A stretch of DNA of 17,564 bases from a virus (Duplodnaviria > Heunggongvirae > Uroviricota > Caudoviricetes): the IMG/VR virus record IMGVR_UViG_646206259_000006; one strand, written 5' to 3'. The notes beneath the pieces are model-generated. The model did not search any database, had not been told where the DNA came from, and was given only the letters and a program-made list of their open reading frames with translations. This document shows positions 7,508 through 15,735 of the stretch, one piece after another. Within the stretch, counting starts at the first letter, position 1; each line of letters opens with the position of its first letter. Made by a program: the position numbers and the translations under genes.

Positions 7508-7611
7508 ACCTGTACCACCTATACCACTTTGCTAATTCAGCATTAAAAACAATGCGTTATAGTGGTACAGGTCAATATCTTACCTATACCAGACCTGTAC
7601 CACCTATACCA
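7508..7611. repeat. Iteron cluster 1 (putative origin): 19-bp direct repeat ACCTGTACCACCTATACCA at 7508-7526 and 7593-7611 with an inverted TGGTACAGGT copy between them
   Basis: Direct reading. Lies immediately 3' of the primase-helicase gene in an AT-rich context, the usual position of the ori in P4/PICI-type elements. Confidence 0.7.
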
Positions 7612-7654: not shown

Positions 7655-7885
7655 ATGATGAGCACACCATTTTACAAAGTGCGCCAGTTAGCTTCTTCCT
7701 CTGGCTGGCAGCTACGGTTTGAGGGGCGTTCAGACTGGCTACCCATTGCGGCATGGGCGAATGTTGAAATGTGTATTGACGGCGATACCGTTGAAATCAT
7801 TATTCCCTGCGTGGCAAGTCGGGACGGCTGTATAGAGCCAACAGATATGGCAGCAGAAATCAGAGAGGTAAAACATGAACAATAA
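7655..7885 (+). CDS. Hypothetical protein (76 aa)
   Basis: AGAGGGA RBS upstream of ATG. Stop overlaps the next start. Confidence 0.5.
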   Translation: MMSTPFYKVRQLASSSGWQLRFEGRSDWLPIAAWANVEMCIDGDTVEIIIPCVASRDGCIEPTDMAAEIREVKHEQ

Positions 7886-8612
7886 CTATTGCATACTGCA
7901 GGGAATGACCAGAACGGAGCGCGAAGAATTAAAAAGTTTCGCTACACAGTGCGGGAATGCTGGCGACATCCAAAGTCTGGAACGCACTTTAATTATGATT
8001 GCGCACTGGATGCGCCAGGGGCAAAGAGTTTCATTTACTGAATATGCCAGCCAGTGGACAGAGGCACAGCGCGAACGGAGCGACGGTAATCACTCAACAC
8101 CCGAAATGGCGAAGCAATGGCCTTTCAGTGGTAAACGCTGTATCAGTCCCGGTGGTTCAGATTATTACCCTGCTGGTGTGGGAGATGAGCCATGTTGTGA
8201 CGAGACTGAAATCCGCCACGCAGTGACAGTAATTACCGCTGAATACCCACAATTTAACCTTGACGGACTGGCGCTCCACAACCGGAATGCGGACTGGGAA
8301 AACCCGCTTGATAACCCGTCATTTATCGTATCGGCGAAAAGCTGCCTGAGATGGATCAGAGACAACGGGATGAGTAATGCCCAGATTGAGAGCTTCCCGC
8401 AGGATAACCCCACATCTGACACGTTGAAGCATGAAGTGGAGCGATATAACCAGATAAACCACCAGCACAGTGATCACCCGCACTATATCCCCAACGGAGC
8501 ATTTATTGCGGCGATGGTGGCAAGCGGCTACAAGGTTAAGCCAGCGGGAAGAATGAACGCATTTTTCAATATTTCAAAAAAGGGATTATGTGCTGCTATG
8601 GGTAAAAATTAA
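7875..8612 (+). CDS. Hypothetical protein (245 aa)
   Basis: GAGAGG RBS. ATG overlaps the upstream stop. No recognisable domain. Sits between the two iteron clusters. Confidence 0.55.
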   Translation: MNNNYCILQGMTRTEREELKSFATQCGNAGDIQSLERTLIMIAHWMRQGQRVSFTEYASQWTEAQRERSDGNHSTPEMAKQWPFSGKRCISPGGSDYYPAGVGDEPCCDETEIRHAVTVITAEYPQFNLDGLALHNRNADWENPLDNPSFIVSAKSCLRWIRDNGMSNAQIESFPQDNPTSDTLKHEVERYNQINHQHSDHPHYIPNGAFIAAMVASGYKVKPAGRMNAFFNISKKGLCAAMGKN

Positions 8613-9216: not shown

Positions 9217-9389
9217 TGGCTATTTCAGTAAAGCCAGTATTGATAAGTGAGAAGCAAATGGAAGCGATAAAGAAAATTCAGGAGGAGCAGCGTAAAAAAT
9301 CAGAGGTAGGAGTTGCGCCAACGATCCACGAAATTGCTCGGGGATTAATGGATAAGGCGCTGGCTTACACTTTAACTGGACGTGGGTAA
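9217..9389 (+). CDS. Small hypothetical protein (57 aa), possibly ribbon-helix-helix-like DNA-binding
   Basis: AAGGGGGG RBS 5 nt upstream. Perfect -10 TATAAT at 9176-9181. The ORF-track call from 9087 is likely an over-extension. The RHH guess is from the beta-strand-then-helix pattern only. Confidence 0.45.
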
Positions 9390-9393
9390 ATTT

Positions 9394-10737
9394 ATGGCTA
9401 CGTGGCAACAGGGTATTAATTCTGGTGGTTTTCTGGCTGGCATCGGTGCGCAAAATGAGAATGCGCCAAAGGCAAGCGACATTAACGCAACGCTTGGTCT
9501 GATCCGCGAAAACAATGAACTGGCTCGCTCAGGTGCAAATAACGTTGCTCTGACAGGTCTTCGTGGTCTGGCTGGAGTTGCTGACATTTATAAGCAGCAG
9601 CAACAGCAGGAACGTAAAGCGGCATTCCAGAAAGGTTATGCAGATGCTTATGCGTCCGGTGACAGGGAGCAGATGCGTAATCTTATTACAGCATTCCCAG
9701 AAGAGTTTGAGGAAGTCCGTAAAGGGATGAGTTATGTCGATGATGCTCAAAGGGATGATTATGGCAATCTGGCGCTCAAAGCACAGGTAGCCTCATCGCT
9801 TGGTCAGGGCGCATTTGGCAGGTTCATGATGGATAATGAGCAGGAGATGCGTCGTTTAGGTATCCCTCCAGAAACTATTGCTGAAATGCAGGTTAATGAC
9901 CCGCAGGGCTTCCAGCATTTCGCAGGTAATCTGGCGCTGTTTTCTCTCGGTCATGAGAAGTATTTCGATATCAAAGATCAAATGGAAGGTCGTCGACTTG
10001 AGCAAGGGCGACTGGATGAAAGTATGCGTCAGGCTGACATGGAGAACGCGAGAGGATGGGCAAATATCCAGAACGCTCAACTAGACAGGGCTCAGCGAGC
10101 ACAAATTCACTCAGATGAGATGGGATTGAAGCTAATGGAGCTGGGGCAAAAAGGTAAGCCGTCAGCAGACTTAATTAAGGGATTAAATTCTGACATTACC
10201 AATTTTGGCAAAAATTATAACTCTGTCAGAGCGGCGGCAAACTCTCTGCAAGCCCTTAGCAAGGTAAATACTGGCGCTGCCCAACTTGGGATTATCTTCA
10301 ACTACATGAAATCTCTTGACCCGCAGTCAGTCGTTCGTGAAGGCGAACAGGTTCAGGTAATGCGGTCTGATGGCATATGGGGACAAATCAAAGGATACAT
10401 AGACCAGCTTAATGCTGGAAACGGCCTGTCGCAGGAGGCAAAGGATAACATTGTTAACGCCGCAAAAATCAACGCCAATGCTATGGGGCAGCAGTTTAAC
10501 CAGCAGGTTGACGAGTATCTCGATACATATGGAGAAACTATTCCTCAGGGGCTAAGAAAAAGCCTTGAAAGAAGGAAAGCGAAGCTATTTGACGATGTTT
10601 CCGGGCAGCCTACATCACAGGCTGGCACTGGACAGGCAAAAGCGGCAACCGGAGGAATATCAGAAGGCGCAACGGCAACCAACCCTAAAACTGGTCAGAA
10701 AATCATTTACAGGAACGGAAAATGGCAGCAAATGTAA
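9394..10737 (+). CDS. Hypothetical large protein (447 aa from ATG 9394; alternative GTG start 9382), Q/N/A-rich and predicted largely helical
   Basis: Long ORF with coding-like composition. No catalytic motif seen (no P-loop, HNH or PD-(D/E)xK). Low-complexity poly-Q stretch (QQQQQ). Flavour of phage internal/ejection or scaffold-type proteins; function unknown. Confidence 0.6.
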   Translation: MATWQQGINSGGFLAGIGAQNENAPKASDINATLGLIRENNELARSGANNVALTGLRGLAGVADIYKQQQQQERKAAFQKGYADAYASGDREQMRNLITAFPEEFEEVRKGMSYVDDAQRDDYGNLALKAQVASSLGQGAFGRFMMDNEQEMRRLGIPPETIAEMQVNDPQGFQHFAGNLALFSLGHEKYFDIKDQMEGRRLEQGRLDESMRQADMENARGWANIQNAQLDRAQRAQIHSDEMGLKLMELGQKGKPSADLIKGLNSDITNFGKNYNSVRAAANSLQALSKVNTGAAQLGIIFNYMKSLDPQSVVREGEQVQVMRSDGIWGQIKGYIDQLNAGNGLSQEAKDNIVNAAKINANAMGQQFNQQVDEYLDTYGETIPQGLRKSLERRKAKLFDDVSGQPTSQAGTGQAKAATGGISEGATATNPKTGQKIIYRNGKWQQM

Positions 10738-12839
10738 TCTTACCGGAAGGTTTTGTGCTCGATGAACAACCTGATAACTCACAGTTTCCTGATAGTTCAC
10801 AGCTTCCTGATGGTTTTGTGCTTGATGCCCAACCAGAACAGCAGCAATCACCTTTGGTTTCACCAGAGGAAAATTCCAGACAGGAAAATGTTGTTAATAA
10901 TGCTAACGGTTTCGACCGTTTTATGTATGGCGTTCTCAGTGGATTGATGGATGTTGGTAAAGGTGTTGGCCTGTTTCAGGATATGACACCAGAAGAGCAA
11001 GCCGCAATTCAGTCTCTACAGCAGAAGTTAGCGGCAAAACCATCAACCGCACAAGATGTTGGTGAGTTCGTTGGACAAGCAGCGCCATTTGTTAGTGGTG
11101 GTGGGATTATTTCTCAGGTTCCCAAAGGGGCGGCAAGACTGGCTGCCGCCGTAGGGCTTGGTGCTGGAGAAGGGGCTATTGTAGCCAATGGAACAAATAG
11201 CGATGTTGCTTCCGGCGCTGCTATTGGCGCTGTGGCTGGCCCTGTAGCCGAACTTGCTGGCCCTGCAATTAATAAAATAGCTGGGAAATTAACCAAGAAG
11301 AATGTTTCTTCGATTCCAGATATTGAGGGGATTACTCCTGCCGAAGAGAAAATTCGTAAGTTATCTGCACAAGGCAACCCAAATCTTGCCTCTTCGCTTG
11401 AAGGGCTAGATCTAAAACCTCAGAAAGAAATTGTTGAGGCTGCAAATAGGCTTCATGTTGATTCAGTTCTTCCTTCTCATTTATCAGGAAATGAGCAATA
11501 CCAAGCTGTAGAGCAAGCCCTAAAGTCACGGACAGGATCAGCGTTAAAAGCTCAAGAAGATAAAGCAATAAGCGAATTAGCCTCTAGTGCTGACAAGATA
11601 ATCGATGATGTTGCTGGTGCGCCAGATGCGTTAGCTATGAGCGAAAAATATATTTATCAGATAAATAGTAGAATGGAAGCACTAAAAAACCGTAGTGATC
11701 AGTTATATAAACGTGTTGATTCCGCTCTATCACCAAGAACAAAAGTCGAAGCAAATAACACAAGCACTATGCTGGAAAAAATCGCTGATGATTTAGGAGG
11801 GTGGGATAATCTTGACCCAATAGAAAAGCGAGTTTTTACAGCAATAAACCCCGGCCCAGATAGCATCCTAACGTATGCAAATTTAAACAGGCAAAGGCGT
11901 TTAGTTGGTGATGCCCTAAATAAAAAGCAGGGGCCATACAAAGATGCTGATAAAGAAGCGCTATCAAGACTATATGGAGCTTTAGCTGAAGACCAAAAAT
12001 CTGTCTTATCCAATACTGGATACTTGCGAGATTTCGAAGTCGCACAACGCCTTGTAGCTATGAGAAAAAACTTAGAAAGGCAAATGGTAAATCTTCGCGG
12101 GAAAACACTTAATGGGGATATAGCGTATAAAGTAACGAATTCTCTTCAATCTATGGCAAAAGGTGATGCGAGAGGGTTTCGTGAGATTATGCAAAATACT
12201 CCATCAAGAACATTGCGAAGGGAGCTAGTAGGAACAGCATTAAGAGATATGCTTTCCTCTGGGAAGCGTGGGGCCGACTTTAATCCATCTGGCTTTGCAG
12301 ATTGGTGGCAAAACTTGCAACACAGTGGACAGCTAAAGACTTTGGCTGAACATTTGCCAAAAGAAACAATGAGCGGACTATATGATGTATACAAAGTTGC
12401 CAGAGCAATAAAAAATGCTAAAGCGCATGAAATATCTACTGGTAAGCTGAATGAGTTTGTAAACAGATTTAATCGGGTAACAGCTCCATACGAACTAGCA
12501 GCAAAACACATTCAAAAAATAGGCACGATGGTAGGCGCTCATTTTGGATCGCTTGGAGCCATTGCTGGGGCTGATATTGGAGCAAGATTGGCGAGTAAAG
12601 CTCGATTAGCTGGTGGAGCAGGGGCGGCTGATGCTGCGGATAAATTAATTGCCTCGCCAGCCTTCCAGAGCGCAGTAAAAAATCTACACGGAAAAGCGCC
12701 TGGGCACATTGTTGATTCACGTATCAGGCGCTCCCCTCAATGGAAGAGTTTTTTTAACTCTCTTCCTGAACAGGAAAAACGGACCATCGCCAGACTGGGC
12801 ATCATTACTTGGCTATCTAATGATCCAGATAATGACTAG
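10722..12839 (+). CDS. Hypothetical large protein (705 aa) with N-terminal tandem peptide repeat, Gly/Ala-rich segments and a long helical middle
   Basis: Overlaps the upstream gene by 16 nt, so co-transcribed. N-terminal repeat PEGFVLDEQP / PDGFVLDAQP. GxxxG-rich segment (GLGAGEGAIVANG…AIGAVAGPVAELAGPA) and C-terminal Gly/Ala hydrophobic stretch (GAHFGSLGAIAGADIGARLA). No enzymatic motif recognised. Confidence 0.6.
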   Translation: MAANVILPEGFVLDEQPDNSQFPDSSQLPDGFVLDAQPEQQQSPLVSPEENSRQENVVNNANGFDRFMYGVLSGLMDVGKGVGLFQDMTPEEQAAIQSLQQKLAAKPSTAQDVGEFVGQAAPFVSGGGIISQVPKGAARLAAAVGLGAGEGAIVANGTNSDVASGAAIGAVAGPVAELAGPAINKIAGKLTKKNVSSIPDIEGITPAEEKIRKLSAQGNPNLASSLEGLDLKPQKEIVEAANRLHVDSVLPSHLSGNEQYQAVEQALKSRTGSALKAQEDKAISELASSADKIIDDVAGAPDALAMSEKYIYQINSRMEALKNRSDQLYKRVDSALSPRTKVEANNTSTMLEKIADDLGGWDNLDPIEKRVFTAINPGPDSILTYANLNRQRRLVGDALNKKQGPYKDADKEALSRLYGALAEDQKSVLSNTGYLRDFEVAQRLVAMRKNLERQMVNLRGKTLNGDIAYKVTNSLQSMAKGDARGFREIMQNTPSRTLRRELVGTALRDMLSSGKRGADFNPSGFADWWQNLQHSGQLKTLAEHLPKETMSGLYDVYKVARAIKNAKAHEISTGKLNEFVNRFNRVTAPYELAAKHIQKIGTMVGAHFGSLGAIAGADIGARLASKARLAGGAGAADAADKLIASPAFQSAVKNLHGKAPGHIVDSRIRRSPQWKSFFNSLPEQEKRTIARLGIITWLSNDPDND

Positions 12840-15590: not shown

Positions 15591-15735
15591 TGTTGGTTCA
15601 GAGCTGGGCTGTGTTGGTTCAAAATGAGTTGATGTTGGTTCAACATTTCAGAAAAAACACAATAAAAACAACGATCTTTACAAATTAAACCAACTGAACC
15701 AACTGAACCAACACCTTTTTGCTTATCTATATAAT
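15591..15735. promoter_or_regulatory. Divergent promoter/operator region: three direct TGTTGGTTCA repeats at 21-bp phasing (15591, 15612, 15633), two tandem inverted copies TGAACCAAC (15695-15712), and a perfect -10 TATAAT (15730-15735) for the plus-strand gene
   Basis: Direct reading. The inverted copies sit where the -35 of the PerC-like gene promoter would be. A related half-site TGTTGGTTAG occurs near 14071-14080 upstream of the peptidase gene. Confidence 0.55.

Follow-up and report, generated by a model that had tools for sequence, protein, structure and literature searches.

A double LPxGFVLD box at the N-terminus of a P22 gp16-type ejection protein is paired with a basic C-terminal tail on the neighbouring gp20-like protein

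We analysed a 17,564-nucleotide (nt) stretch of DNA (IMG/VR virus record IMGVR_UViG_646206259_000006; hereafter the window), which encodes two overlapping genes for phage ejection proteins with a conserved peptide repeat, the box, next to their junction. The downstream gene (10722..12839, plus strand) encodes a gp16-like ejection ('DNA transfer') protein of 705 residues, the N-terminal sequence of which reads MAANVILPEGFVLDEQPDNSQFPDSSQLPDGFVLDAQPEQQQ. The protein matches two PHROG families, phrog_6704 over residues 1-701 (full length; E=7e-175) and, over residues 113-654, the 'DNA transfer protein' family phrog_770 (E=9e-51). It has no match in Pfam-A or NCBIfam. Its gene lies directly downstream of a gp20 homologue, the order found in Kapi1 and P22-like phages, and its full-length tblastn matches fall in the gene downstream of gene 20 in the phages Kapi1, E212 and EC.P3. 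The gp20-like gene (9394..10737, plus strand) encodes 447 residues when read from the ATG chosen by the Prokaryotic Genome Annotation Pipeline (PGAP), the mechanical open reading frame starting at a GTG at 9382. Its product, named 'phage DNA ejection protein' by PGAP, matches PF16928 Inj_translocase (E=2.5e-73) and phrog_917, 'released from the phage upon host infection'.

Proteins of the P22 gp16 type travel in the phage head and, on release into the host envelope, help DNA to cross it. The closest cultured relatives of the locus are Lederbergvirus-type phages. Kapi1 and the window are ~90% identical in DNA across the gp20 gene and as far as codon ~155 of the gene that follows, whereas the remainder of the gp16-like protein is only ~40% identical at the protein level. 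Judged by this pattern, the 705-residue protein is a mosaic P22 gp16-type ejection protein. Its helical body is 40-70% identical to proteins of P22-like prophages, and the protein itself is an ordinary member of a known family.

The two genes share 16 nt (10722..10737, plus strand), in which the region of the gp20 stop codon (KWQQM-stop) overlaps the gp16 start (MAANV). This arrangement is common to most related loci, and the junction elsewhere ranges from an overlap of 34 nt to a gap of 15 nt (-34 to +15 nt). The conserved first residues of box-type gp16 proteins, MA(T/A)(N/D)V, are written in the same bases as the WQ(P/Q)M-stop end of gp20 (ATGGCAGCAAATGTAA), so part of the N-terminal conservation of gp16 reflects the constraint of overlapping frames. 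We considered whether the MAxxV start is a by-product of the overlap; this is probably true in part, but the boxes themselves lie past the overlap, the geometry of which varies.

Box 1 (LPEGFVLD, residues 7-14; 10740..10763, plus strand) and box 2 (LPDGFVLD, residues 28-35; 10803..10826, plus strand) were delimited from the sequence and a homologue alignment, and start 21 residues apart at the N-terminus of the 705-residue reading frame. They are carried by an acidic leader (residues 1-50; 10722..10871, plus strand), which is predicted to be disordered and has a net charge of -7 when counted up to box 2. In DNA, a repeat search of the window returned a 32-nt direct repeat (10743-10774 and 10806-10837) with 81% identity and a start-to-start distance of 63 nt. 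The repeat exceeds chance, because the closest 32-nt self-match over a distance of up to 120 nt has 26/32 identical positions, compared with a maximum of 24 and a mean of 20 in 200 codon shuffles of the gene. The first-pass annotation had described a tandem repeat at 10728-10830. A two-copy repeat is indeed present at the 5' end of the gene, and the nucleotide strings reported are found at 10749-10771 and 10812-10834; the interval was placed correctly, although its end at 10830 clips the second copy by a few bases. The word tandem does not apply to the boxes, which are not arranged head-to-tail, but it does apply to a separate 18-nt unit between them, detected by Tandem Repeats Finder at 10770-10811 (2.3 copies, score 63). 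The spacer (10770..10805, plus strand) consists of two such units, PDNSQF and PDSSQL, the second being an extra, island-specific unit.

Comparison of homologues indicates that the peptide is what is conserved. The N-terminus is common to ten of the 120 best homologues, all ten of which have exactly two boxes with a spacer of 7-8 residues, and the box residues L, P, G, F, L and D are invariant in an alignment of nine homologues. The pair is also kept in homologues with an overall identity of only 40-60%. When box 1 is compared with box 2 in 22 unique double-box DNAs, the fraction of identical bases is 0.875 at the first, 1.0 at the second and 0.347 at the third codon position. Because identity is low only at the third position, the repeat is kept by selection on the peptide and does not stem from recent duplication of DNA.

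The same result does not support the earlier suggestion that the boxes could be a copy-number-variable site, since a third-codon identity of only ~35% is not that of a slippage-prone DNA repeat. Exactly two boxes are present in 41/41 P22-like prophage homologues and in 96/96 island-bearing Escherichia coli genomes, and no polymorphism in box number was seen within either lineage. The boxes show neither the near-identical head-to-tail units nor the length polymorphism among close relatives that mark contingency loci. The number of spacer units does differ, and the difference is fixed by lineage: a single unit, PDNSQL, is present in Kapi1 and in all 41 P22-like prophage loci of the viral collection, and two units occur only in the island (the window and loci L003 and L004). 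The comparison of copy number among homologues that the first-pass annotation had suggested did uncover variation, from two to seven boxes, across very distant relatives, but the number is constant within lineages.

To define the spread of the motif, a profile of the first 37 positions was compared with 1.84 billion representative proteins (at most 50% mutual identity), which gave 252 matches at the threshold of E<=0.001. About 100 of the best 150 matches start with MAxxVxLPEGFVLD-x(7-9)-LPEGFVLD at residue 1, in proteins of 40 to 3,200 residues. Two boxes are present in 82 of these, three in 16, four in one and seven in one. The modal spacing of the boxes is 15-16 residues within an observed range of 12-23, which includes the 21 residues of the window. 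Outside the boxes the proteins are unalignable (mean column identity 9% in an alignment of 64 box proteins), and their bodies match varied families, among them DNA transfer or ejection proteins, internal virion proteins with endolysin domains, SLT, Hydrolase_2, the LPD3/LPD38 domains of polyvalent proteins and an ADP-ribosyltransferase (ART). The box phages come from diverse sources, among them marine, soil and gut metagenome contigs; the only cultured phages with the box cassette in the collection searched are Kapi1, E212, EC.P3, S.Kent 1-2-1 and SEN22. Giant repeat proteins among the top matches, with up to 28 matched stretches and with motifs of the APDGY/PEGYVL and PEGY/PDGY type, were set aside on inspection as unrelated surface-protein repeats.

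The boxes have a counterpart at the end of the upstream protein. The C-terminal tail module of the window's gp20 (TATNPKTGQKIIYRNGKWQQM; 10672..10734, plus strand) has a net charge of +4, and its predicted structure and conservation make it the proposed docking partner of the boxes. It belongs to a basic motif with the consensus TATNPxTGxKIxFRGGxW, predicted to form a beta-hairpin. Among divergent viral contigs retrieved through the boxes alone, the upstream product ends in EGxTATNPxTGxKIIFRGGxWQP(M/I) in 33/34 loci; in the exception, L107, the tail module lies inside the upstream protein. The reciprocal scan started from viral collection DNA encoding EGQTATNPxTG, a variant missing from P22-like prophages, and yielded 63 loci. 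A C-terminal module is followed by a gene that begins with one or more boxes in 32/32 evaluable loci. Boxes are present in 0/21 of the next genes when the module lies internally or at the N-terminus (17 loci) or precedes a Gly-rich C-terminal extension of 13 residues (four loci). After an N-terminal or internal module, the downstream protein often resembles P22 gp16 at its start (for example MPIEIEGPDGVVYEFPDGT), with a P22 gp20-like end on the upstream protein.

Pooling the loci gave 66 unique pairs of tail and N-terminus, with a box within the first 90 residues in 65; in the 66th, the boxes follow an SLT domain. Half of ten upstream proteins tested match gp20-type PHROGs. Because the gene overlap varies over the range given above, the pairing of tail and boxes is not a by-product of overlapping frames. 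The two motifs may also vary in step, in that tails ending in ITF..WQ are paired with GFQLD or GFELD boxes. The charges of tails and leaders lean in opposite directions: over 52 unique pairs, the tails range from 0 to +4 (mean +2.4) and the leaders from 0 to -9 (mean -4.9). The window fits the double-box and tail family as we define it here, that is, at least two boxes in the first ~60 residues, 12-23 residues apart, preceded by a tail-bearing product.

The hairpin module is also found at the N-terminus of, or repeated inside, other phage proteins with no boxes nearby (L208-L263). For this reason we take the TATNPxTGxxIxFxxGxW hairpin, itself a prediction, to be an independent mini-domain. Locus L231 has two tandem copies of the module, and in L241 two copies flank an SLT-like region.

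P22-like phages provide a second view of the pairing. We retrieved 75 P22-like loci through the conserved gp20 N-terminus, and in 75/75, without exception, the gp20 tail covaries with the gp16 N-terminus. The tail TA(T/K)NPKTGQK(I/L)IYRNGxWQxM accompanies the box leader (45 loci), the tail SYTSKSGIQFTVE (SGIQFTVE type) accompanies MMKVTANGKTFTFPDGT (~22 loci) and the tail AASSNFSSLWGD (NFSSLWGD type) accompanies MAKAWKDVIASPQYQ (~10 loci). Look-ups of single homologues added the pairs LSDDxLVNKYLGG(R/K) with MAYDREQLMTALRNADAAGD, GYTFLGGDPSNKNNWRKD with MSGPWEDYQ..GPW, and GAVSWGSMK with MDVLLPNGRTI. At least six alternative cassettes of gp20 tail and gp16 N-terminus thus exist, and they are always exchanged together (L123-L200, L264-L269). 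The N-terminal modules other than the boxes that sit on the same gp16 body include MKVTANGKTFTFPDGT (as in P22), MAKAWKDVIASPQYQ, MAYDREQLMTALRNADAAGD, MAGPWEKYQ..GPWxKYQ with an SLT domain, and MDVLLPNGRTIxGVPDGT. Residues 1-216 of gp20 are 91-96% identical across tail types; some gp20 proteins are homologous to that of the window through residue 413 and then continue into a different tail, and residues 45-155 of the window's gp16 recur behind a MAYDREQL cassette, with a different tail. Because the flanking gp20 and gp16 regions recombine, the exchanged unit measures roughly 230 nt, comprising about the last 38 codons of gene 20 and the first 40 codons of gene 16. The box motif is real, selected at the peptide level, widespread in phages and exchanged together with the gp20 tail as a ~230-nt cassette.

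Two further observations concern individual cassettes. Protein P0107 (L265 3001-5229) combines a MAYDREQL-type N-terminus and its cognate gp20 tail with one degenerate box, PPNGFALDSQP, at the place of box 2, which is consistent with decay of the box after loss of its partner. The P22-type pair (a tail ending in SGIQFTVE with MKVTANGKTFTFPDGT) has distant counterparts in metagenomic phages, in which tails ending in YNPQTGAFE accompany MPIEIEGPDGVVYEFPDGT. No natural gp20-gp16 fusion was present among the 120 gp20 homologues or the box proteins listed.

The leader is predicted to be disordered and the tail to form a small beta-meander. In the AlphaFold2 model of gp16 (47-sequence alignment), residues 230-700 form a helical body with a predicted local distance difference test score (pLDDT) of ~88, and residues 1-50 have no secondary structure (pLDDT ~33). 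In the model of gp20, three short strands are predicted at residues 427-429, 436-440 and 443-446 (TAT, KIIYR and KWQQ), following a disordered linker at 399-423. Searches by sequence found no relatives in the PDB for gp16, gp20 or the box profile, and a search with the gp16 model found no fold relative there (best E=0.29).

We hypothesize that the gp16-like protein uses its boxes to dock onto the basic hairpin tail of the gp20-like protein. This is the reading with the best support, although the sequence patterns and models leave it about evenly balanced between right and wrong. The boxes would act as short linear motifs in the acidic, predicted-disordered leader of a P22 gp16-type ejection protein, and each LPxGFVLD box would form a beta-strand on docking to the C-terminal beta-hairpin of a gp20-type protein, probably by strand addition. 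Docking may couple the periplasmic-tube protein to the inner-membrane protein while the ejection channel is built, or may link the two before ejection. With two boxes, one gp16 molecule could hold two gp20 tails, or two strands could be added to one hairpin. An interaction of this kind was anticipated in part by the first-pass annotation, which had suggested receptor- or partner-binding boxes in a translocated protein: the co-occurrence and the models support partner binding indirectly, but the likely partner is encoded by the phage and is not a host receptor, because the boxes are nearly always accompanied by one particular motif on the ejection protein encoded next to them. The annotation had also held that absence of the repeat from homologues would speak against a function; this applies only in part, since many gp16 homologues do lack it, but these carry other N-terminal cassettes, each with its own matching gp20 tail.

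We infer the physical binding, the timing and the stoichiometry of the box-tail contact from these patterns together with what has been described for P22. The N-terminal 314 residues of P22 gp20 suffice for incorporation into particles (PMC8402733), which leaves the gp20 tail free for a role other than packaging. In addition, the P22 ejection proteins (E-proteins) each enter procapsids independently of the others (PMC8402733). From these two observations, the contact between tail and boxes would act after packaging. The P22 virion is estimated to contain ~30 gp20 and 12 gp16 molecules (PMC8402733), and we speculate, by analogy, that the two boxes of each gp16 match two gp20 tails.

Several observations weigh against docking. 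The independent assembly of the E-proteins in P22 means that an interaction between boxes and tail is not required for packaging (PMC8402733). The main caveat is that tail and boxes are only ~150 nt apart, so that linkage and common ancestry contribute to the pattern: co-inheritance in P22-like phages could be mere linkage, and the pairing in distant phages could go back to a single ancestral gene arrangement. Loci without boxes also contain the TATNP..GxW module, which hence does not need them. Finally, the gp20 model is of low confidence, with a shallow alignment, a mean pLDDT of 50 and a pLDDT of ~57-62 in the tail.

Among the alternatives, we rank first the possibility that the boxes are a head-packaging signal that binds scaffolding protein or the procapsid interior, comparable to the capsid targeting sequence (CTS) of T4 internal proteins, although we consider it unlikely. 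A generic tag would be expected at the extreme N-terminus of many virion-internal or ejected proteins, and this is where the boxes are found, including in polyvalent-protein and ART-domain proteins. P22 E-proteins enter procapsids via the scaffolding protein, and deletions in the scaffold N-loop lower the gp16 content; in T4, IpIII needs no more than its first ten residues to be packaged (PMC8402733; PMC12005531). However, the scaffold N-loop tied to gp16 uptake is described as negative (PMC12005531), and the box leader is strongly acidic as well. A packaging signal also fits poorly with a cassette that covaries with the gp20 tail, a part dispensable for the packaging of gp20, and with the internal position of the boxes, after an SLT domain, in some proteins (L120, P0259).

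Colicins recruit Tol and Ton proteins through short repeated N-terminal motifs in disordered leaders, and the layout of the boxes resembles this arrangement. The boxes could then bind a host envelope component after ejection, such as peptidoglycan or a protein of the periplasm or inner membrane, much as TolB or TonB boxes do; we rank this explanation, which is near to that of the first-pass annotation, second and give it somewhat less credence still. The gp16-type protein is released into the cell envelope, and SieA exclusion maps to gp16 and gp20, so E-proteins do meet membrane proteins (PMC10883804). Yet LPxGFVLD is unlike the TonB-box or TolB-box consensus (by inspection, with the consensus taken from general knowledge), and the environments and hosts of box phages are so diverse that a host partner would have to be near-universal. 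Closely related P22-like phages that share hosts differ completely in their N-terminal cassettes, and the near-perfect pairing with a phage-encoded tail would be left unexplained. The last alternative, which we regard as improbable, gives the boxes no specific partner: they would be a passive spacer, a translation-initiation context or a relic of duplication, and the link to the tail would result from linkage and descent. Adjacency in the DNA and the partial dictation of the gp16 MAxxV start by the overlapping gp20 WQxM-stop codons are in line with this explanation. A passive linker is nevertheless unlikely, because 6-7 residues per box are almost invariant over ~100 protein clusters with otherwise unalignable sequences, while synonymous sites are randomised; moreover, P0107, as a recombinant with a tail not cognate to the boxes, keeps only one decayed box, PPNGFALD.

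In its broadest form the docking hypothesis states that boxes and hairpin are an undescribed, widespread 'snap-fastener' that holds successive ejection proteins together in short-tailed phages, and that the set of such interchangeable ~230-nt cassettes across the gene boundary numbers at least six. We put this forward tentatively and think it may well be wrong. If it is true, the fastener would fix which gp20 works with which gp16, perhaps with a 2:1 stoichiometry. GFVLD was not found as a phage motif in the searchable literature, nor does the paper on polyvalent proteins mention it. The double box, its wide spread and its strict pairing with the tail were not found in Pfam-A, NCBIfam or the searchable literature, in which the relevant P22 work is incompletely covered, so that an earlier description is possible. 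How the three P22-type ejection proteins are connected into a trans-envelope DNA channel is poorly understood, and a tail/box cassette across the gene 20/16 boundary offers a concrete contact point and a compatibility rule for mosaic variants. The N-terminal double LPxGFxLD box could furthermore serve as a signature that flags ejected proteins, large polyvalent proteins included, in the genomes of uncultured phages.

The genomic setting of the pair is unusual. The window is not a prophage and corresponds to a ~17-kb integrative island between yicC and dinD (L002 10736-28036), found in full in 60 complete E. coli genomes. The island form of the gp20/gp16 junction region is present in 96/5,426 complete E. 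coli genomes at an identity of at least 98.5%, including enterotoxigenic E. coli H10407, and the one-unit prophage form is present in ~43/5,426. The island carries an integrase gene just left of the window and genes for an AlpA-like helix-turn-helix (HTH) protein, AntA, Ash, a P4-type DUF5906 primase, ImmA/IrrE and PerC. No head, tail, terminase or gp7 genes were found in it, and it lacks the full E-protein set and virion module of P22-type phages, in which gp7, gp20 and gp16 follow the tail needle gene; this bears on the element and leaves the homology of the gp16-like protein unaffected. A 245-residue reading frame at 7875-8612 was considered as a gp7 homologue and dismissed, having no similarity to Kapi1 gp7. 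On its gene content, the island looks like a phage satellite of the P4 or phage-inducible chromosomal island (PICI) type with only two P22-type ejection-protein genes; in the literature searched, we found no description of satellites that carry such genes. Of complete E. coli genomes, ~2% contain this island, in which these two are the only virion proteins. The snap-fastener, if real, would also explain why the island carries exactly this pair, and the island could put matched ejection proteins into helper particles.

Some other features of the island were recorded. In the non-coding stretch just after the primase gene, iteron-like repeats (ACCTGTACCACCTATACCA) lie at ~7508-7527 and ~7592-7611, with a partial inverted copy (TGGTACAGGT) at ~7563-7572; the repeats at 7508-7611 may be the replication origin of the island. 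A 20-nt unit is present twice in the intergenic region before the HTH gene (795-835; AGCCATCATGAGCCATTATA), and a perfect 9-nt unit is repeated 2.8 times upstream of the PerC-like gene (15688-15712; AACCAACTG). In the E. coli proteins P0003 and P0004, an integrase Arm DNA-binding domain is fused to the C-terminal 59% of the gp16 homologue at 100% identity; a deletion in the island that brought int and the ejection-protein gene together probably gave rise to them.

Of the known systems, P22 gp16 (or Sf6 gp13-type proteins) and gp20 are the closest, with the same gene pair and order and with matches to phrog_770 and PF16928. Genes 16 and 20 are known to be extremely mosaic (PMC10883804), and the same is seen here. 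P22 itself has a different junction cassette, in which gp20 ends in SGIQFTVE and gp16 starts with MKVTANGKTFTFPDGT, and the window differs from the P22 type in that its pair lies in a satellite-like island without gp7 or head genes. The T4 CTS is likewise a short peptide, found at the N-terminus of proteins that enter the head and are later injected (PMC8402733). However, the CTS is a single peptide of ~10 residues that is cut by the prohead protease, whereas the boxes come as a duplicate and vary together with a second ejection protein. To our knowledge P22-like phages have no prohead protease, and none is encoded by the island. The TolB and TonB boxes of colicins are also short motifs, placed in a disordered N-terminal translocation domain with which the protein passes through the Gram-negative envelope; they do not resemble the window boxes in consensus, and the best candidate partner here is phage-encoded. 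T7 gp16 has an N-terminal 'molecular tape' that binds the C-terminal part of gp15 and stabilises it, so that the periplasmic tunnel is formed (PMC8954989). The N-terminal part of T7 gp16 consists of a folded transglycosylase and an extended segment, in contrast to the pair of 8-residue boxes in the window, and the two systems share no sequence similarity. The proposed logic is nevertheless the same, in that the N-terminus of an inner-membrane protein binds the C-terminus of a periplasmic-tube protein, and T7, where the interaction is solved, provides a precedent without homology for the contact that we infer here.

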